From the NCBI GenBank assembly GCA_047651235.1, contig CP178758.1, positions 1,230,001 to 1,262,000 of the forward strand: a DNA stretch of 32,000 nucleotides. Reading direction: 5' to 3'. Each line of letters starts with the position of its first letter. Position 1 is the stretch's first letter. Under the pieces are notes generated by a model. It ran no database searches and was not told where the DNA came from. It saw nothing but the letters and a program-made list of their open reading frames with translations. This DNA comes from Candidatus Electrothrix yaqonensis. GTDB lineage: Bacteria; Desulfobacterota; Desulfobulbia; Desulfobulbales; Desulfobulbaceae. Below, in pieces: positions 17,382-29,902 of this stretch. A program made the position numbers and the translations under genes.

Positions 17382-17940
17382 GTTGCACCTCCGTTTTCCG
17401 TATGACCCGCAGCCCGTCCCGTCCCAGAGTCAGACTGAGTCCGAGCAGGCTGATTTTGGCATTTTTCCAGATCTTGAACATACCGTGCCCTTCAGTCTCG
17501 TATTTGAGATCCTGGACAGAGACACAGCGGGAGGGCATCAGATCATAATACCCGGCAACAATCCCCACAAATTTGGTGTGCTCTGCCCGGTCAAGGGTGA
17601 GATTCCGGGTGCCGCCCGGCTCGATATAGAGTTTTTCCAGAGCCATAACACTGGGATCAAAAACCTTGGCTTCGAGTAATTTTCTCAACCCTTCCTTGTG
17701 CCCGGCAAGACGGTTGAATTCATTGATCTCCTTTAGCTGGTAAATCACCAGCAGCAGAGAGTTGGGATGGCCGTCCTGTGCATTGAGATCCGGAGCTGCA
17801 CGGTAGACAATATTGATGCCGTTTTCTCCGTATGTCCACTCCGGTTTCGGTTCTTCACCGGCGCAGGCCGGGAGCAGCAACAGACACAGAAAAAAAGGAA
17901 AGTATATTTTTTTTCCACTGAATATAATTTTTTCAACCAC
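17371..17940 (-). CDS. tssJ: Type VI secretion outer-membrane lipoprotein TssJ
   Basis: 189-aa ORF with a GTG start. Lipobox LLPAC. Its size, its position as first gene before tssK, and an 11-nt overlap with tssK all fit. Confidence 0.8.
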   Translation of the reverse strand: MVEKIIFSGKKIYFPFFLCLLLLPACAGEEPKPEWTYGENGINIVYRAAPDLNAQDGHPNSLLLVIYQLKEINEFNRLAGHKEGLRKLLEAKVFDPSVMALEKLYIEPGGTRNLTLDRAEHTKFVGIVAGYYDLMPSRCVSVQDLKYETEGHGMFKIWKNAKISLLGLSLTLGRDGLRVIRKTEVQHGS

Positions 17941-18357
17941 GTACTTTCATTCCTGATAAACAACGATAACAATATTTAATTACTATATTTTTATCCGCAA
18001 AGCAAAGGTCAGGCAAAGGATAAGAACGACAACCTTATTAAAGTTCTTAAAACATATTTGGGTTATTTTCAAACAAAAAAAGAAAGTCAGGCGGATTGAC
18101 GAAGATTCTGCCTGCTTGGCAGGCTGATTTCTATAGAGAAACAGGATGCCGGATTGAGCGGTTTCTCCGTTGTACGGGACGGGCTGTTCTTAGAAGCATG
18201 TTTTTCAAACAGCTTCTAAGTTTCATATTTCCGTATTGGTGGCTTTTGTTCAGGAATGACCGTCATGTCATTGTGGGCAGGGGAGACGGATTGCAGCGAT
18301 GAAATGACATCTGCTTTTGGTGGTGAGTTGCCGCAGCAGAAAAGTTATTGGCGGGCT

Positions 18358-18536
18358 AATGCCGAGTTGACCGGAATTTTCCTGGTATAATGGCCGCTTG
18401 CGGTTGATTATTGCGGGAAAATTTCGAGTCCAACGTTTGGTTCCGAAGGCGCGTAGCGCCGCAGGAATCAAATGTTGGGCCGGTACGGTCAACTCGGCAT
18501 TCCAAAGGCGTGGCCCGAAGGGGCGCGCCTTTGGAA
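18358..18536. other. Densely base-paired non-coding element (candidate structured RNA or palindromic element)
   Basis: A perfect 16-bp long-range inverted repeat, AATGCCGAGTTGACCG (18358-18373) / CGGTCAACTCGGCATT (18486-18501), encloses two nested hairpins (GGAATTTTCC...GGAAAATTTC and CCAACGTTTGG...CAAATGTTGGG, the latter with inner GGCGC-GTA-GCGCC). A second hairpin follows immediately: TTCCAAAGGCG...CGCCTTTGGAA (18500-18536). As minus-strand RNA, the apical loop of the second hairpin (18500-18536) reads UUCG (CCC-UUCG-GGG); a second UUCG in the enclosed region (18443-18446) lies at an internal junction. Confidence 0.4.
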
Positions 18537-18611
18537 CCATGTTGTGGGTGTGAAGATTCAGGAGGAAAAATAATCCTGTCGGAGTATGGTGGCGTATCCG
18601 GTTGGGTATAA

Positions 18612-18875
18612 TTATGAATAATGATACCGGCATGAAATGATCGTAATATATTGATCAGTCACAGCATAAACCAACCTGTTCTGTTCATCAATTCTGCGGG
18701 ACCAGAAACCAGATAAATTTTCCTTTAACGCTTCAGGCTTGCCGATTCCCCTAAAGGGATCACGCTTGACCGCATCAATCAGTTTATTGATCCTTTTCAG
18801 GGTCTTTTTGTCTTGTGACTGCCAATAGACATAATCCTTCCATGCTTCATCCGTCCAGGCAAGCTGTCTATTCAC
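18612..18875 (-). CDS. yoeB: YoeB/Txe-family type II toxin (mRNA interferase)
   Basis: 87-aa ORF. WTDEAWKDYVYWQSQDKKTLKRINKLI...NLSGFWSRRIDEQNRLVY...CRYHY is a classic YoeB sequence. It overlaps yefM by 8 nt. Confidence 0.93.
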   Translation of the reverse strand: MNRQLAWTDEAWKDYVYWQSQDKKTLKRINKLIDAVKRDPFRGIGKPEALKENLSGFWSRRIDEQNRLVYAVTDQYITIISCRYHYS

Positions 18876-19122
18876 GGATCAGCTCTCTTTCGTTTATCTG
18901 ACCGTTCTTATACTGCATGATAGATTTTGCCAAGTGTTCGGCATTGGCCGGTGTTTTGAGGAGATGCAAGGTTTCCATCAGGCTGTTGAAGACCTCCAGC
19001 GACATCACGACGGTATCCTCTCTGTCGCGCCTTGAAATAATTGTGTAATCGGCATCGTCGGTTACTTGATCCAGCACCGCTTTCAGGTTATTTCTTGCTT
19101 CGCTGAAATTCACTACTTTCAT
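18868..19122 (-). CDS. yefM: YefM/Phd-family antitoxin
   Basis: ATG at 19122 with GGAGG 5 nt upstream gives the 84-aa protein MKVVNFSEARNNLKAVLDQVTDDADYTIISRRDRE... The 210-aa ORF in the track is an artefactual upstream extension. Confidence 0.9.
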   Translation of the reverse strand: MKVVNFSEARNNLKAVLDQVTDDADYTIISRRDREDTVVMSLEVFNSLMETLHLLKTPANAEHLAKSIMQYKNGQINERELIRE

Positions 19123-19148
19123 TATCGCCTCCAGACTTGTTCTGTTTA

Positions 19149-19156
19149 TTGTACAA
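19149..19156. promoter_or_regulatory. Candidate YefM-YoeB operator palindrome (TGTACA core)
   Basis: TTGTACAA lies 27 nt upstream of the yefM start. The E. coli yefM-yoeB operator is built from palindromes with a 5'-TGTACA-3' core. Confidence 0.4.
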
Positions 19157-19210
19157 GTATAACTCGGCAGCATGCAATTAGCAAATGAATAGTCGTGACG
19201 GTGGACAGAG

Positions 19211-19373
19211 GGATCAGTTAAATGTGGATTTGTCGGGCCGGGCTGAACCGTGAGAACCTGTACAAGGCTTTTGCCGGAGAGGGTAATCCGAGATTTTCCA
19301 CGGTCAGCAGGGGCATCAAGGCATTGGGGTGCCGACTGGCTGTTGTGTGAAGGCGGGAAACAAAGGAGCCGGA
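19211..19373 (+). repeat. Repeat copy A (higA-3'-derived unit, right end truncated)
   Basis: Translates in one frame to GIS*MWICRAGLNRENLYKAFAGEGNPRFSTVSRGIKALGCRLAVV*. It contains the 50-nt core at 19282-19331, identical to copies C and E. Confidence 0.85.
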
Positions 19374-19528
19374 GGCATATCAATAACGAACAGGACGGCA
19401 CCGGGTGACTGCCGGATGGGAACGGGAAAGAATATCCCTCATTTTTTTTCTGTTGTTTCCGGCGCGGCTTTCCTGTATTATAAATACACAGGCCGCACAT
19501 AAGGTTAAGCTAACCTGGAGGAGATAAA

Positions 19529-19768
19529 ATGAACATTACGCTCTCAGCAGATCAGGAAATCATAAATAAGAGCCGCCAATATGCAAAAAAATGCGGCATT
19601 TCCCTGAACAGTATCATAAGAAGCTACCTAAAAGATATCAGCGGGGAAAATGACAGAAGGGAAAATGCCGAAGAATTTTCGCGGTTGGCTGAAACCGAAG
19701 CCGGTTGTTCTGAACCCGGATACAGGTTTGACAGAAATGAAATTCATGATCGGAGTCACAGAGCATGA
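19529..19768 (+). CDS. Antitoxin of a VapBC-type pair (small DNA-binding protein with MNITLS... N-terminus)
   Basis: 79-aa ORF with SD GGAGGAG upstream. It overlaps the downstream PIN gene by 4 nt (ATGA). N-terminus MNITLSADQEIINKSRQYAKKCGISLNSIIRSYL is typical of PIN-partner antitoxins. Confidence 0.8.
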   Translation: MNITLSADQEIINKSRQYAKKCGISLNSIIRSYLKDISGENDRRENAEEFSRLAETEAGCSEPGYRFDRNEIHDRSHRA

Positions 19769-20175
19769 AAAAAATTTTCATTGATACAAACCTGATCGTT
19801 TACGCCAATGACCGTCGAGACCCGCAAAAACAACAGAAGGCTATTGAGCTGATCAAAGAATTGATGGGTGTCGGATTGGGGGTTATTTCCTCACAGGTTT
19901 TGCAGGAATACGCCAATACAGCCCTCACGAAATTACATCAGAATCATACTATCGTTTTGCGACAGCTCAACCTTCTGGAATCATTTGAGGTTGTTCTCCT
20001 GAAGCCCGTTTTAGTCCGACGTGCGATAGAAATAAAAAGCAGCTACGGTATCAGCTTCTGGGATTCCTGCATTATCAGTGCGGCTGAAGCAGCCGGGTGC
20101 GACAGTATATACTCTGAAGATCTGAGTTCGGGACAATATTATTCCGGGATGAAATTGGTCAATCCTTTTTTATAA
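19765..20175 (+). CDS. vapC: PIN-domain toxin (VapC family)
   Basis: 136-aa ORF. MKKIFIDTNLIVYA carries the first acidic PIN residue. Later WDSCIISAAEAAGCDSIYSEDL is a typical PIN C-terminal motif. Confidence 0.88.
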   Translation: MKKIFIDTNLIVYANDRRDPQKQQKAIELIKELMGVGLGVISSQVLQEYANTALTKLHQNHTIVLRQLNLLESFEVVLLKPVLVRRAIEIKSSYGISFWDSCIISAAEAAGCDSIYSEDLSSGQYYSGMKLVNPFL

Positions 20176-20228
20176 TACCCTCAACAGGTTGCGGTTTGCA
20201 ACTTCAGCGATGTCGCGCCGGTGGGCAG

Positions 20229-20451
20229 CGGGATCAGTGAAATGCGAATTTTTGTCGAGCCGGGTTGAATCGTGAGAGCTTGTACAAGGCTCTTGCCGGA
20301 GAGGGTAATCTGAAGTTTTCCACGGTCAGCAGGGGCATCAAGGCCTTGGAGTGCCGACTGGCTGTTGTGTGAAGACGGGAAACAGAGGCGCTATATGCTG
20401 TTTTTGCAACAATTCCAATTCGGTGATCAATTGAGTCCGATCCCATTGATC
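20229..20451 (+). repeat. Repeat copy B (full-length unit with terminal hairpin)
   Basis: Encodes GISEMRIFVEPGLNRESLYKALAGEGNLKFSTVSRGIKALECRLAVV*. It then has the conserved tail with ATG-CTG-TTT-TTG-CAA-CAA and the hairpin GATCAAT-N13-ATTGATC (20425-20451). Confidence 0.85.
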
Positions 20452-20457
20452 TCTATC

Positions 20458-20868
20458 TCAAGACAGCGCAAGTTTAAACTTCTTTCTGCCCTTGATACGG
20501 TAGATGGTAAAATCTCTGTCTATGGTTGCCACGGTATTAAGACCGAGCTGTTCTGCAAGGTAGACAAGGCATGAATCGGCAAAGTCCATCGGAAGATCTT
20601 TATATTTTTCCGTCAGCTCCCTTATCCGCCCGAAGTCGCTGTTTTCAATATTCCGTATTTCTACAGCGCCTCTGTGTATCCATTCCAGGAAATCCAGTTG
20701 AGCCTGTCTGCTGAAGTCCAGCATATGCAGTGTTTCCGTCACAGATGCCAAGGTGGTGACCAGCGGGGTTCTGTTTGTGCGGATAAAATCGACCGCTACC
20801 TGATGATACCTGTCCGAGGCATCAAACAGGGCGATCATCGGGCCGGAATCCATCAGGATTTTTTTCAT
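20458..20868 (-). CDS. PIN-domain toxin (VapC-like)
   Basis: 136-aa ORF. MKKILMDSGPMIALFD...PMDFADSCLVYLAEQLGLNTVATIDRDF is a PIN fold signature. It is paralogous to the ORF at 22452-22868. Confidence 0.85.
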   Translation of the reverse strand: MKKILMDSGPMIALFDASDRYHQVAVDFIRTNRTPLVTTLASVTETLHMLDFSRQAQLDFLEWIHRGAVEIRNIENSDFGRIRELTEKYKDLPMDFADSCLVYLAEQLGLNTVATIDRDFTIYRIKGRKKFKLALS

Positions 20869-21107
20869 TTTCTTTTGGCCCGGATTTTGTCCTTTACAAG
20901 CTCTTTTCGTCGTCCAGAGAGGTCATCGCGACCGCTGGCGTGTTTGCCGAAAAGGTCTTGACCTGCATCCCAGGCGTTCCGAGGTTTGAGCCTGCCTATA
21001 TAGTCAAGAATGCTTCGTCGGATCAGTTCCGACTTTGAGAGTCCTAAGTTTTCCGCTGTGTTTTTCAGTAGCTGTTCCAGCTGAGGATCAAGTCTTAGGG
21101 TAATCAT
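20865..21107 (-). CDS. Ribbon-helix-helix (CopG-like) antitoxin
   Basis: ATG at 21107 with GGAGGTG upstream gives the 80-aa protein MITLRLDPQLEQLLKNTAENLGLSKSELIRRSILDYI... It overlaps the PIN gene by 4 nt. The 150-aa ORF in the track is an artefactual extension through repeat C. Confidence 0.85.
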   Translation of the reverse strand: MITLRLDPQLEQLLKNTAENLGLSKSELIRRSILDYIGRLKPRNAWDAGQDLFGKHASGRDDLSGRRKELVKDKIRAKRK

Positions 21108-21120
21108 ATAGTTCACCTCC

Positions 21121-21139
21121 GTATTACGGATTGTAATAC
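21121..21139. promoter_or_regulatory. Candidate operator palindrome for the RHH antitoxin
   Basis: Perfect inverted repeat GTATTAC-GGATT-GTAATAC, 14 nt upstream of the RHH antitoxin start. Confidence 0.4.
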
Positions 21140-21169
21140 ATTGAGAGGTGAATTGCAAGGAGGGTGGCA

Positions 21170-21399
21170 TGGCGCAGAAATGTCGCATTGGGATATCCGG
21201 CCGGAAAACAGGAAATGACCGAGGCGGTCGGAAAGGCAGGCTGAATCGTGAGAGCCTGTATAAGGCTTTTGCCGGAAACGGTAATCCGAGATTTTCCACG
21301 GTCAGCAGGGGCATCAAGGCATTGGGGTGCTGGCTGGCTGTTGCGTGAAGACGGAAAACATAGGAGCCGGATGCTGTTTTTGCAGCAATTCCGATTCCG
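21170..21399 (+). repeat. Repeat copy C (no terminal hairpin; preceded by an SD and ATG)
   Basis: AAGGAGG-N5-ATG at 21169 opens MAQKCRIGISGRKTGNDRGGRKGRLNRESLYKAFAGNGNPRFSTVSRGIKALGCWLAVA*. The core at 21280-21329 is identical to A and E. The tail is conserved up to about 21399. Confidence 0.8.
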
Positions 21400-21519
21400 A
21401 ATGTCAGCCGTAAAAATTGGATTGGATTAGTAAGAAAAATCTTGACGGATACCCTAAAATACAGCTAGACTGTCTAGGTGAAAGATGCTAAAAAGAAATA
21501 ACTGCAAGGAGAACAATAT

Positions 21520-21780
21520 ATGATAAGAAGAACAACTTGGGCACTTCAGGATGCCAAAAACAAATTCAGTCGAGTGGTCAACGAAGCACTCACGCACGGG
21601 CCGCAATATGTTAAGCGGAGAGGTGTTGATACCGTCGTTGTACTGTCGGTCCGTGATTATGAGAAATTGACCTCGCAGAAGCCCTCGTTTACCGACTTTC
21701 TGTTAAGTGCTCCAAAAATCGGCAATAATGCCGATCTGTTTGAGAGGCAGCATGAATATCCGAGGGAACTTGATTTATGA
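21520..21780 (+). CDS. Phd/YefM-type antitoxin
   Basis: 86-aa ORF. TWALQDAKNKFSRVVNEALTHGPQYVKRRGVDTVVVLSVRDYEKL is a typical Phd-fold N-terminal domain. It overlaps the PIN gene by 4 nt. Confidence 0.88.
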   Translation: MIRRTTWALQDAKNKFSRVVNEALTHGPQYVKRRGVDTVVVLSVRDYEKLTSQKPSFTDFLLSAPKIGNNADLFERQHEYPRELDL

Positions 21781-22199
21781 ACTATCTGCTGGACACATGC
21801 GTGATCTCTGAGCTGGTCAAACCTCGACCAAATACTGCTGTGACTGACTGGCTTGCCCGGACTCCTGCGGACCGCCTGTTTCTGAGTTCCCTCACAATAG
21901 GAGAGTTGAAACGAGGTATTACGCGGCTGCCCGAGTCAAAAAAGAAAAGCCACCTGATGATGTGGCTTGAGACGCTGCTGGCGGACTACAGTGACAGGAT
22001 TCTCCCTGTTGATAGTGCTGTGGCTGAAGCATGGGGGATTATGCAGGCGCGGGCGGAGGATTCAGGACAGAGGATGTCGATTATTGACGGGTACATTGCC
22101 GCCACGGCATCAGTATACCAGATGACTGTCGTGACACGAAATGAGGAGGATTTTTCTCCGAGTCATCAGGCAATACTGAATCCGTGGAAGATGCTTTGA
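21777..22199 (+). CDS. vapC: PIN-domain toxin (VapC/FitB-like)
   Basis: 140-aa ORF. MNYLLDTCVISELVKPRPN...SLTIGELKRGI...IIDGYIAATASVYQMTVVTRNEEDF is a classic VapC sequence. Confidence 0.9.
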   Translation: MNYLLDTCVISELVKPRPNTAVTDWLARTPADRLFLSSLTIGELKRGITRLPESKKKSHLMMWLETLLADYSDRILPVDSAVAEAWGIMQARAEDSGQRMSIIDGYIAATASVYQMTVVTRNEEDFSPSHQAILNPWKML

Positions 22200-22200
22200 G

Positions 22201-22433
22201 TCAGCTTGGAAGCCCACAGCAGGCAATGATGGCCGAAGTGGCCGGGTTGAATCGTGAGAGCCTGTACAAGGCTCTTGCCGGAGAGGGTAATTCGAGATTT
22301 TCCACGTTCAGCAGGGGTATCAAGGGCTTGGGGTGCCGACTGGTTGTGGTGTGAAGACGGGAAAGAAAGGAGCCGGATGCTCTTTTTGCAACAATTACAA
22401 TTGTGAGATCAATCGAGTCCGACCCCATTGATC
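22201..22433 (+). repeat. Repeat copy D (full-length unit with hairpin)
   Basis: It starts 1 nt after the vapC stop and encodes QLGSPQQAMMAEVAGLNRESLYKALAGEGNSRFSTFSRGIKGLGCRLVVV*. SD plus ATG at 22377 gives MLFLQQLQL*. Hairpin GATCAAT-N13-ATTGATC at 22407-22433. Confidence 0.85.
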
Positions 22434-22451
22434 AAGCAAATCCTCCACTGA

Positions 22452-22868
22452 TCATTGATGCGGAATGACCTCCAACATGGAACCGTCCGAAAGGCGATAG
22501 ATATAAAAATCACTGTCAACGGTAAAAATCCGTTTCATTTTTCCATGCTCCGCCAAGGCGACCAAGGATGCATCGGCCAGATCCATCGGCGTATCCTGAT
22601 ATCTTTTCATCAACTTATGCATTGTCTTGGTCTCTGAAAGGGTCGGCTCATGAAGTTCCAGCTTCATCTCCTCTACTAACTTCCAAAGAACAGCCTGATA
22701 ACGAAAGCCGCCGACCGCTCCGAGAATATGCATGGCCTCGGTAAAGCACGGCCATGTTGTCAGCATAGGTTCGGCAGGCAAGGTCTTCACGGTATCAATA
22801 CAACGTCTATGATGATTGTCCCTTTTATCAAGCAGCGCAATAAGCGGCCCGGTATCGGTTAATATCAT
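22452..22868 (-). CDS. PIN-domain toxin (VapC-like)
   Basis: 138-aa ORF. MILTDTGPLIALLDKRDNHH...PMDLADASLVALAEHGKMKRIFTVDSDF. Homologous to the ORF at 20458-20868. Confidence 0.85.
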   Translation of the reverse strand: MILTDTGPLIALLDKRDNHHRRCIDTVKTLPAEPMLTTWPCFTEAMHILGAVGGFRYQAVLWKLVEEMKLELHEPTLSETKTMHKLMKRYQDTPMDLADASLVALAEHGKMKRIFTVDSDFYIYRLSDGSMLEVIPHQ

Positions 22869-23155
22869 ATTTTTCCCTGTCGGCGTTTTGCCGCAAGGAT
22901 ATCAGCAAATCTTTTTCCGGTATTTGCGGACATCTGCGCACCACCCGGAACAACTTCTCCGCTGTCGATGGTGCCGATATCTCCTTTCAACATATCAGCC
23001 AAACTGTTCATCCCGGAATCTTCCTGTTTTTTTCTCTCTTTTTGAAAAAAGCATTCCCGAAGTGTTTTCAGAACAATTGATTCGACAGTTGCTCCCTGTT
23101 TTCTGGCCACCCGAATTAATACCTGCTCAATTTCCGGCGTTAAAGTTATATTCAC
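22865..23155 (-). CDS. Antitoxin partner of the PIN toxin
   Basis: 96-aa ORF overlapping the PIN gene by 4 nt. The N-terminus MNITLTPEIEQVLIRVARKQGATVESIVLKTL resembles the 19529-19768 antitoxin. Confidence 0.75.
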   Translation of the reverse strand: MNITLTPEIEQVLIRVARKQGATVESIVLKTLRECFFQKERKKQEDSGMNSLADMLKGDIGTIDSGEVVPGGAQMSANTGKRFADILAAKRRQGKI

Positions 23156-23295
23156 GAAAAATCCTCGCTATATTTGTTCCTGTTATTTTTTGCAGCAGGG
23201 TGATAGCCTGACCGCATACTACCCAACAGTTTGTTCTCTGCTGTTATGCTGCCATATTTATCTGTATGATGCAAGGTCGTTTCTGTTCAGGGGGG

Positions 23296-23513
23296 GGCGG
23301 CGAGGTGGCCGGAAAGGCCGGGCAGAACCGTAAGAGCCTGTTCAAGGCTCTTGCCGGAGAGGGTAATCCGAGATTTTCCACGGTCAGCAGGGGCATCAAG
23401 GCATTGGGGTGTGCCGACGGGCTGTTGCGTGAAGACGAGAAACAAAGGAGCAGGATGCTCTTTTTGCAACAATTCCAATTCCGGGATCAATCGAGTCCGA
23501 TCTCATTGATCCC
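23296..23513 (+). repeat. Repeat copy E (full-length unit; reading frame broken near the 3' end)
   Basis: Encodes ...EVAGKAGQNRKSLFKALAGEGNPRFSTVSRGIKALGC, then loses the frame and stop through a 2-nt insertion. Core at 23362-23411 is identical to A and C. SD plus ATG at 23455. Hairpin GGGATCAAT-N13-ATTGATCCC at 23483-23513. Confidence 0.85.
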
Positions 23514-23530
23514 TGTGACCCCTATTCCCC

Positions 23531-24139
23531 TTAAAATTCACCGCAGTAACCTTCATAATTCTCTGGATTACGTCTTGCCAGCCTAGGATGCTCATGGGCA
23601 AGACGCTCAGCAGAAGCAGGATCAATAGCTCCGCGATGATGTATATGGCCGTTCTTATGACTCAACTCGTGAATAACGGTTTTGGCACGTTGATGCTGAC
23701 TCATACGAAACCAACTTGGGCATAGCTTAATTCGAGTACCTGGAGAACAATATGCCACATTGTCCCCATTACACAGATACGAACGATTACCACTCTCATG
23801 CTGAATGAGAGCAAACCGTACATCTTTCTCGAATTCCTTTCGAATTCTTTCCATTCGGCGACGAGTTCGTCGTATCTGCGCATTAGTTAATTTACCTCTC
23901 CCAAACCACCGAACAACAATTGCATTCGCCCTCCACGCAGCTTTTCTTCTTCTACGCCGTCGTCTACCGCGTCCGGGCTGATTCCATATTTCTGCAAGAA
24001 CACGTAAACCTTCTATTGCCATCCTTTCCGCATCGTTCGCGGCATCCTCAATAGCCGTCCTCTGCGTGCCTGTAATCGGCCTATCACCGTTTCGATTTCT
24101 TCGTACCCTTATGTCTACCGTTGCCATGTCAAACCTCAT
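23531..24139 (-). CDS. M35/aspzincin-like zinc metallopeptidase domain protein, no signal peptide
   Basis: 202-aa ORF. A better-placed SD (GAGG) favours the ATG at 24127. HExxH motif in TVIHELSHKNG. The C-terminal ARRNPENYEGYCGEF resembles the NADSYxxF tail of the lysine-specific metalloendopeptidase family. The upstream LCNGDNVAYCSPGTRIKLCPSWF fits that family's pre-motif region. It also has an unusual GRGRRRRRRRK tract. Confidence 0.65.
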   Translation of the reverse strand: MRFDMATVDIRVRRNRNGDRPITGTQRTAIEDAANDAERMAIEGLRVLAEIWNQPGRGRRRRRRRKAAWRANAIVVRWFGRGKLTNAQIRRTRRRMERIRKEFEKDVRFALIQHESGNRSYLCNGDNVAYCSPGTRIKLCPSWFRMSQHQRAKTVIHELSHKNGHIHHRGAIDPASAERLAHEHPRLARRNPENYEGYCGEF

Positions 24140-24164
24140 GTTGATAATTGCTAATTAAAAATAT

Positions 24165-25241
24165 CTAGTTGCATTCCCCACTATCCCAATCGAAATGTTC
24201 ACAAAATAAATCATAGCCTGTATCCGTGCCTTTCTTGTCACATACACTATCATTTTTCTTCTTGAAGGCGGTTGACCTTCTGACACATTTACGGGAGCAA
24301 TCACGAATTCTTCCATCCCCGCAGGGAGCACCAACTTCATTCAGCTTATAGACAGAATCACGCAGGCATACAGCCATTACTTTACAGTCATTTGAAGAAC
24401 GACCACGATGCCGCTGAGACCAGCCGGATAAATCTGAATTTGGAAAATTCCAGTCCCCATCGTCTCCATCTGTACAATAGGAACCACCACTCAATACTTT
24501 AGCATCTTTGCAGCTTGTACTTCCGTTGCCATAACCTGTGTGACTTTCCGAACGATATACGCCTCTCCCCATCCAATGGTTTTCTTTTACACAAATAGCA
24601 TGAACTCTACAGTTGTTAGATGATGATCCACGATGCCATTCTTTCCAGCCCGCGAGAGATTCGTCTGGATAAGCCATATCTAAGTCGCCATCTTCACACC
24701 AGCTTCCTCCCCCAACAGCTTTGTAACCGGTTGGGCAGTCAACACTCCCTTTACCATAAAAAGTTTCTTTTTCCGTAGCTAAGATATCTTCTTTTCCAAA
24801 CCAGATAGGAGTTACGCAGTTGGATTTACAACCCGTTGATTTTGTTCAACTGACGGTTTGCAGCTCTAACAAGCGAACCTATTGTAACAACTGCGCTTCC
24901 TGTTTTCAACTGCGTAACTCCTACCAGATTTTAGGAGCACATACAGCATACACATTACAATCATTAGAGGAAGCTCCGCGATGCCATTCAGCCCACCCTA
25001 CAGGAACTTTGTATTTATACCCACTTTGTGATTCTGTGATAGGATACGTTACGTCAAGTTCTCCATCGTTACATCGTGAACCGCCTCCTAGTGCAAACAT
25101 ATCACTCGGACATCGCACCTCTCCTTGTCCATATTTTGTGAATTCTTTAACTATTATAAGATCTTGAGCAAGTGCTGTGTTGCCTATAATGGTATAAAAA
25201 ATAATGTACAAATAGGATTGAATAATCAATTTAGATTTCAT
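24165..25241 (-). pseudogene. Secreted cysteine-rich triple-repeat protein gene, interrupted by a 116-bp insertion
   Basis: ORF 24921-25241 has an SD (GAGGA) and a signal peptide (MKSKLIIQSYLYIIFYTIIGNTALA/QD). Frame 24165-24845 is the same frame. Removing 24807-24929 (123 bp) joins ...AVCAPKIW to FGKEDILATEKETFYGKG..., giving a ~318-aa protein. That protein has three copies of a module YG.G...C....(A/L).GG(G/S)..C.DG......(Y/F)P...(L/V).GW...HRG.SSN(D/N)C.V.A(V/I)C. Confidence 0.75.
24807..24922. mobile_element. MITE-like non-autonomous insertion
   Basis: Perfect 16-bp terminal inverted repeats AGGAGTTACGCAGTTG (24807-24822) / CAACTGCGTAACTCCT (24907-24922), flanked by the 7-bp direct repeat ACCAGAT (24800-24806 and 24923-24929). 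The interior has no ORF and has further partial palindromes. Its excision restores a continuous reading frame. Confidence 0.75.
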
Positions 25242-25346
25242 CACTTTCCTCTTAACTGCCTGATTTAATGGATACTGTTATATATAGTAATATTACTAAA
25301 ACATACTGTTTCAAAAAAGTAAACAGAAATCCGACATGGCAGAATG

Positions 25347-25406
25347 AAAAAGTATCCCTTTGGTATCACACCCCAAAATCAAACCCCGTAGCCATGCGGG
25401 TTGTAG
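25347..25406 (+). repeat. Intergenic direct repeat, copy 1
   Basis: AAAAAGTATCCCTTTGGTATCACACCCCAAAATCAAACCCCGTAGCCATGCGGGTTGTAGG. About 78-80% identical, with one indel, to 25609-25668. Confidence 0.6.
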
Positions 25407-25479
25407 GTTCGAATGCCGCCCCATAGGAATCAGGGGACAGACCCCAATTAAACAACAACGACTTCAATTTACTAAAGAT

Positions 25480-25578
25480 GATGGTCTGGTAAAAAGTCAG
25501 AAAATAGCAAGTCGCTGACGACAACTCAGTAAGTTAAGATACGATTTTCCGCAAAATTGGACTTTTTACTAAACCATC
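25480..25578. repeat. Imperfect 19-bp inverted repeat pair with a 61-nt spacer
   Basis: GATGGTCTGGTAAAAAGTC (25480-25498) versus GACTTTTTACTAAACCATC (25560-25578): 17 of 19 positions are complementary. It lies between the two direct-repeat copies. Confidence 0.5.
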
Positions 25579-25608
25579 AAAGATACATATTGAATTAAAA
25601 AAGTCAAT

Positions 25609-25668
25609 AAAAAGTACCCATGTCGGTATCACAGAGCAAAATCAGACCCCGCAACCATGCGAGTTACA
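25609..25668 (+). repeat. Intergenic direct repeat, copy 2
   Basis: AAAAAGTACCCATGTCGGTATCACAGAGCAAAATCAGACCCCGCAACCATGCGAGTTACAGA. Both copies keep a small hairpin, CG(U/C)A-NCCA-UGCG. Confidence 0.6.
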
Positions 25669-25705
25669 GAGTGAGGTTACAGGGTACGAGTGCTGTCACC
25701 AACCA

Positions 25706-25742
25706 GATAAAAAAAAGGGGCAAACCCAAAGGCAGCCCCTTT
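25706..25742 (-). terminator. Rho-independent terminator of the formate dehydrogenase gene
   Basis: The minus-strand RNA reads GGGGC-UGCCUUUGGGUUU-GCCCC followed by UUUUUUUU, about 50 nt after the stop at 25790. Confidence 0.75.
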
Positions 25743-25789
25743 CAAATACTCCACAGAGCAACCGAAATCACTCAGTTTTTACCTAAAAA

Positions 25790-28700
25790 TCACCCCACAA
25801 CCTCAACCCGAATAGCACAAAGCTTATACTCCGGCGTCCGGGAAAGCCGATCCAGCGCATCCAGAGTCAGCAGGTTAACCGGGGTCTCGGCATAGTTATA
25901 GGTAGTGAAAATGGTACCGGGCTGACTGCGCTCGGTGATCTCCGCCTTGATGGTGACCTCGCCCCGCCGGGAGGTGAGTTTCAGCATATCACCCGACTTA
26001 ATCCCCAGCCGCTCGGCATCTGCCGGGTTGACTTCGGCCAGAGCCTCTGGAGCGATATCATCAATCTCCTCGGTCTTGCCGGTCATGCTGACAAAGTTGT
26101 AGCGGGCATAATGGCGGCCCGTGGTGAAGAGCATGGGATACTCGTCATCCACCGGCTCTTTGGGCGCCATGTAGTCCTCCGGCACAAACAGGCCCTTGCC
26201 CCGGGTAAAGCTCTTAGTATGCAGAACGGTAGTTCCCGGATGATCAGCGTCCGGGACCGGCCACTGCAGGCCCTCGTCCTCAAGCCGGGCATAGGACATG
26301 CCGCAATACTGGGGCAGCAGCTCGCAGACCTCATCAAAGATATCCTCAGTCTTTGTGTAGCCCATTGCATAGCCCATACGCTCGGCCAGCTCGGTGAGGA
26401 TCAGCCAGTCCGGCTTGGCCTGTCCCGGCGGTTCCACTGCCTTGCGGATACGCTGTACCCGCCGCTCCGTGGAGGTGAAGGTGCCGTCTTTTTCCGCAAA
26501 ACAGGCTGCCGGCAGAACCACGTCCGCCTCTTTGGCCGTGTCGGTGAGAAAGATATCTTGGACAATAAGGAAATCCAGATGCCGCAGGGCCTTATGAACA
26601 TGGCCGATATTAGCATCAGCAATGGCCGGATCTTCACCAAACACGTACAGGGCTCGAATTTCATCCTGAAGGATATTATCCCAGACCTCGGTAGCTGGCT
26701 TGCCGGGCTGGCGCGGCATTTTCACGCCCCAGCGTTCTTCGTACTTATCGAACAGCTCATCATTGCTCAGACCGCCGTATCCGGGCAGGGTGTTGAACAG
26801 AGCGCCCATATCGCAGGCCCCCTGGACATTATTCTGACCGCGCAGCGGATTACAGCCGCCGCCTTCCACCCCGACCTTGCCGCAGAGCATGGCCATGTTG
26901 GCGATAGATTTCACCCGGTCCGTACCGGTATGGTAATGGGTAATCCCCATGCCGTGGTAAAAGGCATTGCGCCCCGGAGCCGCATACATCCGTGCTGCCT
27001 GTTCCATCTCGGCAACAGTCAGGCCGGTGATTTCCGCCACCTTCTCCGGCGGATAATTTTCCACCAGGGCTTTCAGTTCGTCGAAATCCTCGGTGCGTTC
27101 TGCAACAAATTGTTTGTCCCAAAGATCCTCTTTGAGGATGATGTGCATCAGGCCGTTGAGCAGGGCCACATCCGTGCCCGGCTGGATGCGGAGCCAAAGG
27201 TCGGCCCGTTCTGCCAGCTTGGTCCTGCGCGGATCAATCACCACCAGCTTGGCGCCCCGATCCAGGGCCTGATGGATACGCATCCCGATGGTCGGGTGAC
27301 TGGTATCCGGGTTGGAGCCGATCATAAAAAAGAGATCGGTTTTGTCATTGAGTACATCCGCAATGGAATTGGTCATTGCGCCGGAACCGAACGTGATGGC
27401 CAGACTGGCCACCGTGGGAGCGTGTCAAAGTCGGGCACAGTGATCGATATTATTCGTCCCGATCACCGTGCGCATAAACTTCTGCATGAGAAAATTTTCT
27501 TCATTGCTCGCCCTGGCGCAGGAAAATCCGGCAATGGAGTCCGGTCCGTAGTCCTTTTTGACCGCAGTCAGCCGGTCCGCAATAAAATCGTAGGCCTCAT
27601 CCCAAGATGCCTCCTGCAGCTCACCGTTACGGCGAATCAGCGGGGTGGTCAGACGTTCCTTGTCCTGAACAAAGTTGAAGGCGAACCGGCCCTTGACGCA
27701 GAGCGCACCATAATTGGGTGCCAGCTCCGGCTCCGAGGTGACCTCCATAATCGTGTCGCCCTTGACCTTGAGCTGCATCTGACAGCCAGCCCCGCAGTAG
27801 GGGCAGGTGGTGCGTACATAGCGCACATCTTCGTTGAGGATGGGGGAAAGCACGTCCTTCTTGCTGATCGTGCCGGTGGAGCAGCTGTCCGCGCATTGGC
27901 CGCAATGCACGCATTTTTCATTAAAGCGGAGAGAAATACCTGTGGCCAAGCCCTGCTCATCTTGGGAGGTGCAGCTCAGCTCCAGCGCGTCGTATGCACA
28001 GGCATTGACGCAGCGGCGGCAGTACACGCATTTATTCAGATCCACATTGAGCATGGGATGCGAACTGTCTAGGCTGTACGCCGGGGCACCGGCCATACCG
28101 GTTTTGTTCAGGTTGATGTCGCTGTCAATGCAGAGCTGCTTGAAGTCGCAGGTATCATAGGCCATGCAGCCGCATTCCAGACAGCGATCTGCTTCCCGCT
28201 TGGCTGCGGTCTCGTTAAAGCCCAGCCGGACTTCTTCATTGTCCAGCACTGCTGTTTCCGGGGTGCGGTCCGGCATGAGAGTGCGCTCCTGCTTATCAAA
28301 CCGTTCCAGCACCTTGGCATCTACAGCAGCAAAGGACTTGCCGCGCGTGAAGTTGAACCGGCTTTCCGCCGGAGCTTCAGCAATACCCATTACAGCGGCA
28401 TGGATATTTTCTGCGGCCTTGCGCCCGGAACTGACCACTTGAATCAGGGCGCGGGTGCCGCTGGCTGCCTCGCCTGCCGCATAGACCCCGTCCATACTAG
28501 TCATCGAAGTTCTGACATTGGCCTTGATCAGGTTTTTCGGGGTAAAGTCCACAGGAAACGGGGCATCGCCCTCGGTACAGGCCATCTGGCCCTGGGCATG
28601 AATGATCGTATCCACCAGCAGGACATCAAAGGCATCCGGAACCGGCTGCAGCTGCTGTTTTCCTCTTTTGTCCGGTTTCCCCAACTCCATCTGGGCCAGG

Positions 28701-29902
28701 ACCAGCTCCAGACCGGAACCCAGCTGCTTGATTTCACAGGGATCAACCATGAACAGGAACTGCACATTTTCCTTTGCCGCCTCACTGACCGTTTTGGGTG
28801 TGGCGGTGAGCTCGGATTCATCAGTGCGCAGGTTGACCAGGGTCACTGCTTTATAGCCCAGCCGGATCAGACTGCGGGCGCTTTCCAGGGCAATATTATT
28901 GCCGCCGATGACCGCTGCTGTTTTGCCTTTGTACAGCTCCCCGGTTTCTCCGGCATTGTACTTGCGGAGAAACTCCAAGCCTGGCAGCACACCGGGAAGA
29001 TCAGCACCCGGAATTTCCAGCGGCTGGTCAATCCCGGCCCCGGTCGTCAGCAGAGTGGCGTCAAACCGGCTGTTCAGCTCATCCAGAGTGATGTCCTGTC
29101 CCAGCCGATGATTGCATTTCACCTCAATGCCGAGTTTAAGAATGGTTTCGATTTCGTAATCCAGCACATTTTTCGGCACCTTGAACTCCGGCACGCCGTA
29201 ACGGAGCAGACCGCCCAGCTGTTCTTCAGCCTCAAAGATGGTCACCGTATGGCCGTTTTTTGCCAGATAATAGGCCCCTGATAACCCGGCAGGGCCGCCG
29301 CCGACCACGGCGATCTTTTTGCCGGTGGCAGGCTGCTGCTGAATATTGAGATCCACCTGATTGCTCATGCACCAGTCAGCAGCAAAACGCTTCAGGTGAT
29401 TGATGGCAATGGGATCATCCAGCAGAACCCGGCGGCAGCGGCTTTCGCAGAAGCGGCGGCAGAGCCGGCCTACGGAAAACGGCAGCGGATTTTTTTCCAT
29501 CACCAGACGGACCGCTTCCGCGTACTGGCCCTTGGCGATATGGGCGATATAGCCCTGCACATTGATCTGACCAGGACAGGTCAAGCTGCACGGGGCCTTG
29601 CAGTCGCCAAAATGAGCGGACGCCAGCGCAGCAAGCCGTTCCTGCCGGTGTGCTCTGACCTCCTCGCTGTCAGTAGTGATCTCCATGCCCTCTTCAACCG
29701 GCGTGGAGCAGGATGTGATCAGTCCTTCCCGGCCCTCACAGGCCACCATGCAGACCTCGCAATGGGCCTCATTCGGCAGTTTGTCAGAAAGATAACAGAG
29801 AGTCGGGATGGTGGTTCCGGCCTGACGGGCTGCTTCCAGAATGGTCGTGCCCGGTTCGACGGAAAGCTGAACGGCATCAATGGACAAACGGATTTTTTTC
29901 AT
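25790..29902 (-). CDS. fdhA: Selenocysteine-containing formate dehydrogenase catalytic subunit fused to 2Fe-2S ferredoxin, GltD-like FAD/NAD(P)H and 4Fe-4S domains (~1370 aa with UGA read as Sec)
   Basis: ORFs 27425-29902 and 25790-27412 are in the same frame and are separated only by TGA (27425-27427). Read-through gives [29 protein letters not shown], which matches the conserved Sec/Cys-His active-site region of molybdopterin formate dehydrogenases. The N-terminus has a 2Fe-2S Cys pattern, KKIAVVGGGPAGLSGAYYLAKNGHTVTIFEAEEQLGGLLRYGVPEFKVP (GltD-like), and CxxCxxC ferredoxin motifs. Confidence 0.88.
27391..27415 (-). promoter_or_regulatory. Candidate SECIS stem-loop
   Basis: The mRNA 10 nt after the UGA reads ACGGUGGCC-AGUCU-GGCCAUCACGU, an imperfect hairpin (7 contiguous bp plus a bulge) with a GU-containing apical loop. 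Confidence 0.5.

Follow-up and report, generated by a model that had tools for sequence, protein, structure and literature searches.

A 118-bp element at positions 24806–24923 of a 32,000-nucleotide stretch of the Candidatus Electrothrix yaqonensis genome (contig CP178758.1; the whole stretch is referred to as the window) is very probably a non-autonomous MITE (miniature inverted-repeat transposable element) of the IS701 type, with ends like those of the insertion sequence (IS) ISMesi2, inserted in a gene for a secreted cysteine-rich protein with the transposase provided in trans. The element displays the structural features of prokaryotic MITEs, i.e. a length of 118 bp, no transposase gene, inverted ends, a target duplication and ends common to autonomous ISs. 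Its components (IRL and IRR, left and right inverted repeat) are the following:

24806–24923, minus strand: non-autonomous 118-bp MITE, derivative of an ISMesi2-like IS of the IS701 family (from family-wide boundaries, ends and subfamily alignments)
24806–24822, plus strand: left terminal inverted repeat, TAGGAGTTACGCAGTTG, 17 bp, IRR type (next inward base G), matching the ends of full-length elements
24907–24923, minus strand: right terminal inverted repeat, 17 bp, IRL type (AAAAC follows inward), matching the ends of full-length elements
24801–24805, no strand: left copy of the target-site duplication CCAGA (family-wide 5-bp rule)
24924–24928, no strand: right copy of the target-site duplication CCAGA (5-bp rule and start of contig L133)
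24835–24850, no strand: internal hairpin GTTGA-TTTTGT-TCAAC (repeat families D2 and I6; alignments A2 and A4)

Terminal repeats and folding potential

The 16-mer AGGAGTTACGCAGTTG occupies positions 24807–24822 of the plus strand and has its exact reverse complement at 24907–24922. No third match with up to three mismatches was found across the 32-kb window (chance expectation 0.18). Directly outside both 16-bp repeats lies the heptamer ACCAGAT (24800–24806 and 24923–24929; direct-repeat family D8). These perfect inverted and direct repeats had been described in a sequence-only reading of the same DNA, and were found exactly where that reading had placed them. Its description of the element as non-coding and MITE-like also held, as the element carries four stop codons in the frame of the host gene, lacks a transposase gene and has ends of the IS type. 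When delimited as above, the terminal inverted repeats are identical at 17 of 17 bp.

A 130-nt stretch comprising the element and its flanks has a strong potential to fold on either strand, with minimum energies of −45 kcal/mol (plus strand; z = −5.5 relative to shuffled sequences) and −51.9 kcal/mol (minus strand; z = −7.2). The internal hairpin (24835–24850), located within the best-conserved internal block of the subfamily described below, echoes the inner part of the terminal repeat (CAGTTGAA) and may constitute a second transposase-binding site.

Searches against Rfam 15 yielded no matches in the whole window at the gathering thresholds and none at E ≤ 1 for positions 24650–25080. An intein or intron was ruled out (too small, in-frame stops, no RNA-family match), as was a repetitive extragenic palindrome (REP), a bacterial interspersed mosaic element or an intrinsic terminator (location inside a gene, flanking duplication, IS-type ends, no terminator call).

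Distribution of the element ends and the autonomous partner

The end of the element extended by two inner bases (AGGAGTTACGCAGTTGRA) was used to scan 185,579 species-representative genomes. This analysis revealed at least 119 matching stretches, compared with approximately 35 expected by chance (estimated from the size of the collection). All counts derived from the scan are lower bounds and refer to the matches listed; the source genome is not among the loci listed. The end was found in Armatimonadota, Poribacteria, Chloroflexota, Acidobacteriota, Cyanobacteriota, Desulfobacterota, Myxococcota, Chlamydiota, Nitrospirota, Bacteroidota and in several gammaproteobacterial and betaproteobacterial lineages, as well as in archaea (Methanothrix and a thaumarchaeon), an overall spread of at least a dozen bacterial phyla plus archaea. 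Metagenome-assembled genomes account for many of these matches, and mis-binned contigs may lie behind some of their taxonomic labels; the presence of the end in archaea is secured by a complete plasmid of Methanosarcina barkeri MS.

A second, inverted end is present within 1.3 kb in at least 77 cases, and chance is ruled out as the cause of this pairing. The spans of the paired elements fall into two classes: most measure 80–270 bp, while about eight measure 1.01–1.08 kb. The elements of the longer class encode one protein of 331–334 amino acids (aa), a DDE transposase, and five of them are flanked by perfect 5-bp duplications. These proteins score 384–395 bits on the NCBIfam model NF049921 (“IS701 family transposase”; cutoff 250) and also match Pfam DDE_5 and DDE_Tnp_1.

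Among the plasmids of PLSDB, a TBLASTN search with the partner transposase retrieved 424 records, and a BLASTN search with the window element retrieved none. A copy on plasmid pMESIL01 of Allomeiothermus silvanus (locus L122, 211–1302), named by PGAP “IS701-like element ISMesi2 family transposase”, bears the identical 17-bp end: its first bases are TAGGAGTTACGCAGTTG and its last bases CAACTGCGTAAGTCCTA. The plasmid copies from pMESIL01, Gloeocapsa and Methanosarcina barkeri have the same terminus at both ends and measure 1.05–1.14 kb. The inverted repeat thus led to an autonomous partner, as the sequence-only reading had anticipated, through the 1.01–1.08-kb elements with the same ends. Judging from these ends and the encoded proteins, the partner family is that of the ISMesi2-like elements of the IS701 family, found in other genomes.

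The two ends of the full-length elements differ in their inward continuation, which is GTTGG at the transposase 3′ end and GTTGA(A/G) at the opposite end, upstream of the transposase gene. In the window element, GTTGG is found at 24822–24823 and GTTGAA at the right end. It therefore holds one end of each type, as expected of a derivative generated by internal deletion. The same end types (IRL at 24923, IRR at 24806) assign the predicted direction of the ancestral transposase gene to the minus strand.

The transposase ORF (open reading frame) of the full-length elements stops inside the terminal repeat, reading CCA ACT GCG TAA (P-T-A-stop), 6 nt from the tip. This overlap was observed at L032 (6664–7708), L041 (3182–4257), L054, L122 (211–1302) and L123 (252–1302). 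One end of the ISMesi2-like elements is therefore a coding sequence and a transposase substrate at once, and this double role may contribute to the near-invariance of the 17-bp terminus across phyla.

Short elements with the same ends also occur back-to-back or less than approximately 1 kb apart, in contigs of Myxococcota, Poribacteria and Desulfobulbaceae (the loci being L097, 7406–7780; L004, 6747–7243; and L024, 5797–6799). This arrangement suggests clustered or nested insertions of MITEs in these contigs.

Boundaries of the element and target-site duplication

In 67 of the 77 paired elements the 16-mers are bordered on the outside by a T at the left and an A at the right, whatever the flank, and three further elements have C...G in this position. 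Because the terminal T...A is kept in most of the paired elements, the inverted repeat is assigned a length of 17 bp (TAGGAGTTACGCAGTTG). Outside this 17-bp end, perfect 5-bp repeats flank 29 of the 77 elements (five of them full-length), as well as the Gloeocapsa and Methanosarcina plasmid copies. The 29 sites share a target preference approximating AAW-N5-WTT, with which the window site (AAA-CCAGA-TTT) agrees. In addition, the start of contig L133 (described below) puts the boundary of the repeat at 24923|24924. On this comparative basis the element is delimited as 118 bp (24806–24923), with CCAGA duplicated.

In the sequence-only reading the same repeats had been interpreted as a 116-bp element with 16-bp ends and a transposase-made 7-bp duplication, ACCAGAT. 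The repeats themselves are real, and ACCAGAT does form a perfect direct repeat immediately next to the 16-bp repeats, but the lengths are not upheld by comparison with the family. Seven-bp duplications do occur in a few members, e.g. the ISMesi2 copy on pMESIL01 (TGGAGGA) and two Thermoflexus copies, but they are measured from outside the 17-bp end. The 7-bp interpretation also has to treat the T...A pair as part of the target, although this pair is present in the 67 elements regardless of flank, and it requires an A before and a T after each repeat, which were seen at 11 and 9 of the 29 sites, respectively, and together at only three. The contig L133 boundary likewise falls where a 5-bp duplication places it.

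We consider the 7-bp interpretation very unlikely. The heptamer is better explained as a 5-bp duplication plus a host A (24800) and a host T (24929) that mimic the last and first bases of the element, a coincidence made likelier by the AAW-N5-WTT preference. What counts against the 5-bp assignment is that the duplication length is not strictly constant: besides the 7-bp cases, 6-bp duplications flank nine of the 77 elements. Both interpretations predict the same empty site, so the rebuilt protein is unaffected by the choice between them.

The variable length was noted at the flanks of L122 (211–1302) and at L031 and L066; in Thermoflexus, 5-bp and 7-bp duplications were observed in one genome.

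The interrupted gene

The element separates two parts of a gene transcribed from the minus strand:

24921–25244, minus strand: 5′ gene part, with a signal-peptide-like N-terminus and repeat module 1, 106–107 aa, closed by the TAG of the element (from translation and alignment A1)
24165–24805, minus strand: 3′ gene part, with repeat modules 2 and 3 plus a C-terminal tail rich in Cys; open frame with all family-invariant residues present (from translation and alignment)

The minus-strand translation reads ...NDCNVYAVCAPKIW*, passes four stops inside the element and continues as ...IWFGKEDILATEKETFYGKGSVDCPTGY..., all in one frame. The N-terminal ORF ends with ...CAPKIW followed by TAG, which consists of the last three element bases as read on the minus strand and is the first element codon of the host frame; the same frame resumes as IWFGKEDILATEKETFYGKGSVDCPTGY... 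and stops at 24165. The gap between the gene halves is 123 bp, i.e. 41 codons. In the 3′ part, which lacks a signal peptide, the first start codon is the M at 24677.

Excision of the 123 bp joins ...CCAAACCAGA to TTTTAGGAGC... and yields a protein of 317 aa, which was searched against a collection of 5.8 billion proteins. Eight homologs were found (E values of 1e-126 to 2e-65, 44–66% identity, 71–100% query coverage). The junction is crossed without a gap in all eight, and W106 and F107, brought together by the excision, are invariant within the junction motif C-A/T-P-x-x-W-F. Invariance extends, on both sides of the insertion, to the cysteines and to the H-R-G-x-S-S motif in each of the three modules. 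At the protein level, therefore, an unoccupied homologous site is present in the homologs, which are continuous across the junction. The claims of the sequence-only reading that a single secreted-protein gene had been split, and that removal of 123 bp rejoins its halves in the same frame, are borne out by this alignment, as the removal exactly restores the uninterrupted sequence of the homologs at the junction.

Since all homologs cross the junction ungapped, two separate genes with a spacer are excluded, and the two parts are read as one interrupted gene. Two ORFs are indeed obtained by mechanical ORF listing, and a strong hairpin lies between them, as would be expected of two genes with a conserved palindrome in the intergenic space, whether REP-like, a terminator or a hairpin with a regulatory role. 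However, the homologs are single junction-spanning proteins with an invariant W-F, not pairs of independently conserved genes, and close to the junction the 3′ part lacks both a start codon and a signal peptide of its own. Moreover, the same ends delimit transposase-carrying elements elsewhere, and no terminator-like site with a T-run was called at the element. The probability left for a two-gene arrangement is minimal.

The “in frame” character of the split, pointed out in the sequence-only reading, is correct as arithmetic (118 + 5 = 123) and has no biological consequence in view of the four stops. An in-frame coding insertion in the style of the Rickettsia palindromic elements (RPEs), adding a peptide to a still-functional protein, might be considered since 123 is divisible by three and in-frame fusions of MITEs with ORFs have been documented (PMC10969869), but it is hardly credible, given that the host frame runs into TAG as soon as it enters the element and meets three more stops within it.

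The insertion of the IS701-type MITE very probably proceeded as follows. An element that retained just the two ends of an ISMesi2-like IS of the IS701 family would have been mobilized by an ISMesi2-group transposase acting in trans, which would cut with a 5-bp stagger at CCAGA within an A-rich/T-rich target (AAA|CCAGA|TTT). The element would then be joined at the cut, and gap repair would double CCAGA. The insertion site is the linker that joins module 1 to module 2 in a secreted Cys-rich protein built of three modules. The product of the gene is now at most an N-terminal fragment of 106 aa (signal peptide and one module) ended by the TAG of the element, and the 3′ part has been deprived of its start codon and signal peptide.

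Both gene halves are free of further damage. Together with the perfect ends and the perfect duplication, this is consistent with the clean insertion envisaged in the sequence-only reading, and the event is judged to be evolutionarily young or still neutral.

The 317-aa protein (24165–25244, minus strand) represents a very rare family: the 5.8 billion proteins searched include eight homologs, and Pfam holds no match. Its AlphaFold model (pLDDT 80, pTM 0.81) shows three beta-rich modules with Cys residues. In Foldseek comparisons (E values of about 1e-8) the modelled modules match PCSK9, in its C-terminal Cys/His-rich domain, and apicomplexan perforin-like proteins, in their APC-beta domain. Several homologs carry lipoprotein-type signal sequences. 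Exact-protein look-ups of the N-terminal ORF (with two starts) and the 170-aa C-terminal ORF returned no record.

The insertion in source-sample assemblies

The Logan assemblies of SRR31704081 and SRR31704082 contain records of several window proteins, on contigs with 100% identity to the window. Such contigs are assembled with k = 31, each 31-mer occurring once (PMC12424806). The contig with the formate dehydrogenase genes (L133) begins at 24894, exactly 30 nt into the element from its right end, and the contig with the 3′ gene fragment and the peptidase gene stops at 24832, 27 nt into the element from its left end. Both junctions are thus confirmed independently by short-read contigs of SRR31704081. 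An assembly artefact was ruled out, as both junctions lie in independently assembled contigs. A mixed population of empty and occupied sites in the source sample was also ruled out: the contigs run 27–30 nt into the element and do not end at the duplication, where they would have stopped had an empty allele been assembled.

Contig ends located approximately k−1 bases inside the element fit a repeat present in multiple contexts, suggesting that the source sample contains further near-identical copies. Such copies may be expected in the source genome itself, in which an ISMesi2-type transposase would have acted; the sequence-only reading had likewise proposed an active transposase elsewhere in the genome.

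Several observations weigh against the insertion of an IS701-type MITE or against parts of this reading. Neither similarity to any transposase nor a second copy of the element was found within the 32-kb window. The left break at 27 nt, in place of 30, requires another copy that shares three flanking bases, and both breaks could result from loss of coverage over the strong hairpin rather than from extra copies. At the DNA level, a 24-mer spanning the rebuilt empty site was absent from the JGI metagenome collection, and the nearest homolog of the rebuilt protein is 66% identical. For these last two reasons, the proposed recency of the insertion rests on the intact repeats and gene halves.

Close relatives of the window element

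Most short elements of other phyla resemble the window element at the ends only. Relatives over the whole length (75–81% identity) were identified in Desulfobulbaceae bacterium UBA5173 (three copies within one 8-kb stretch) and in the cable bacterium Candidatus Electronema aureum GS (two copies). Four further relatives of 116 bp, with the same range of identity, were retrieved from four contigs of a sediment metagenome (L125–L128) with a pattern composed of the conserved internal hairpin and the end. All four are flanked by perfect 5-bp duplications (TATCT, AGAAT, ATAAA and TTTTT). In the alignment of nine subfamily sequences (mean column identity 86%), conservation extends beyond the ends to the hairpin CAGTTGAAC-AAAATC-AAC and an ATTACAG block. 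The occurrence of this subfamily in the window is suggestive of a Desulfobulbaceae origin.

In Ca. Electronema aureum GS (L105, 7008–7325; NQJD01000006.1) a 100-bp subfamily copy adjoins a decayed ISMesi2-like transposase fragment. The fragment is C-terminal (residues 262–329, 62% identity) and is truncated by an IS30-like transposase gene. Its presence indicates that the partner family once occurred in that lineage.

Promoter-like site and the adjacent peptidase gene

Two further features are located inside the element and downstream of the interrupted gene:

24881–24909, minus strand: promoter-like site, TTGAAA, 17-nt spacer, TG-n-TACAAT (TGtTACAAT), in agreement with the consensus at 10 of 12 positions and with the TG motif present
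23531–24127, minus strand: Aspzincin/M35-like metallopeptidase gene (PF14521)

The peptidase gene starts 38 nt past the stop codon of the interrupted gene. A GAGG ribosome-binding site precedes its second ATG, which is the start used in the gene call of the Logan contig; the peptidase is on record from this second ATG only, and an exact look-up of the 202-aa form returned no record. The gene probably forms an operon with the interrupted gene. Given this likely co-transcription, it would be exposed to polar effects of the insertion.

The promoter-like site begins at the IRL-type end and is directed towards the 3′ gene fragment and the peptidase gene, and is probably a relic of the transposase promoter. 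It may be asked whether the insertion has been retained for rewired expression, with this inward site driving the 3′ fragment and the M35 peptidase gene without need of the native promoter, an idea compatible with the insertion of an IS701-type MITE described above. The strand of the site is the correct one, the subfamily alignment shows conserved columns at its −35 and TTACA blocks, and sigma-70-like promoters are known in Correia elements, MITEAba12 and other MITEs (PMC10969869). However, four such sites were found in the region compared with 4.5 expected from shuffled sequences, the final T of the −10 hexamer is absent in six of the nine aligned copies, and the conservation may reflect shared descent or transposase binding. 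We regard retention for rewiring as unlikely. Since the counts do not exceed those of shuffled sequences, an effect of the site on the peptidase gene can only be hypothesized.

Genetic surroundings of the insertion

The region 17500–25900, which contains toxin-antitoxin modules, the M35 peptidase gene and the interrupted gene, has a low GC content (0.37–0.50) compared to that of the flanking type VI secretion and formate dehydrogenase (fdh) genes (0.55–0.60). With a complete type VI secretion cluster (3.8–18 kb) on one side and the fdh operon on the other, it has the appearance of an accessory island.

A repeat of approximately 190–200 bp occurs five times in this region (19226–19440, 20248–20462, 21224–21438, 22230–22444 and 23306–23522; mean column identity 81%). 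The copies are spaced about 1 kb apart, between successive toxin-antitoxin modules (PIN, Phd/YefM, RHH), and on translation they give the C-terminal portion of a HigA-like antidote protein (...RESLYKALAGEGN.RFST.SRGIKALGC). Their arrangement is reminiscent of a cassette array, and short-read contigs break there too, at 23380. An assignment of these repeats as integron attC sites was dropped, as one unit folded as single-stranded DNA gave z = −0.5.

A gene for a formate-dehydrogenase-like molybdopterin oxidoreductase (25790–29902, minus strand) contains an in-frame TGA at 27425–27427 (...NIDHCARL-TGA-HAPTV). This codon occupies the position of the active-site selenocysteine, so that the region probably comprises one selenoprotein gene of about 1,366 codons and not two ORFs.

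Comparison with known elements

The window element shares with the ISMesi2-like ISs (IS701; NF049921) the identical 17-bp repeat, the same inner difference between the ends, the usual 5-bp duplication and an A/T-flanked target. It differs from them in being 118 bp long, not 1.01–1.14 kb, and in lacking a transposase gene, and its internal 84 bp have no detectable similarity to the interiors of the sampled full-length elements.

ISAba11 of Acinetobacter belongs to the same IS701 family, and its transposase resembles that of the partner (121 Acinetobacter plasmid records at <60% identity). ISAba11 is experimentally active and inactivates genes by insertion (PMC9771954). It is nevertheless distant and autonomous, and the likeness to the window element is drawn from the family and transposase only.

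The Correia elements of Neisseria, MITEAba12 of Acinetobacter and Nezha of cyanobacteria are, like the window element, small, devoid of a transposase gene and dependent on a transposase acting in trans, with inverted ends, a target duplication, a strong tendency to form hairpins and, possibly, a promoter inside. They differ from it in parent family, and the ends of the window element span unusually many taxa. The RPEs resemble it as mobile palindromes inside protein-coding genes with a length divisible by three; they are, however, translated within the host protein, whereas the window element is closed by four stops.

In type, mechanism and effect the element is a textbook case, although the family of ISMesi2-type miniature elements may be undescribed. 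IS701 is absent from a 2024 review of prokaryotic MITEs (PMC10969869), and no paper on the end sequence or the name ISMesi2, nor any linking ISAba11 and IS701 with a 5-bp duplication, was found in the searchable literature, in which IS701 and MITEs are co-mentioned in passing only and are treated separately in an Acinetobacter review. A broader proposal, which we put forward tentatively and hold to be possible rather than probable, is that the 17-bp terminus TAGGAGTTACGCAGTTG marks an uncatalogued pan-prokaryotic MITE superfamily, whose members would have arisen from ISMesi2-like IS701 elements on repeated, independent occasions, in archaea and in a dozen or more bacterial phyla. The unusual conservation of the end would come partly from its coding for the final residues and stop of the transposase, and the Desulfobulbaceae/cable-bacteria subfamily would possess a conserved inward promoter able to re-drive downstream genes.

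For the source genome, the insertion marks a pseudogenised or truncated secreted protein, with a possible polar or promoter effect on the adjacent M35 peptidase gene, and points to past activity of ISMesi2-type transposition in the source lineage. Annotation gains the exact boundaries of a repeat that breaks short-read assemblies and is now called as spurious ORFs. More broadly, one IS701-group terminus is common to autonomous elements and to many unrelated miniature derivatives across archaea and a dozen or more bacterial phyla, and would provide a convenient marker for the horizontal spread of this transposase lineage.

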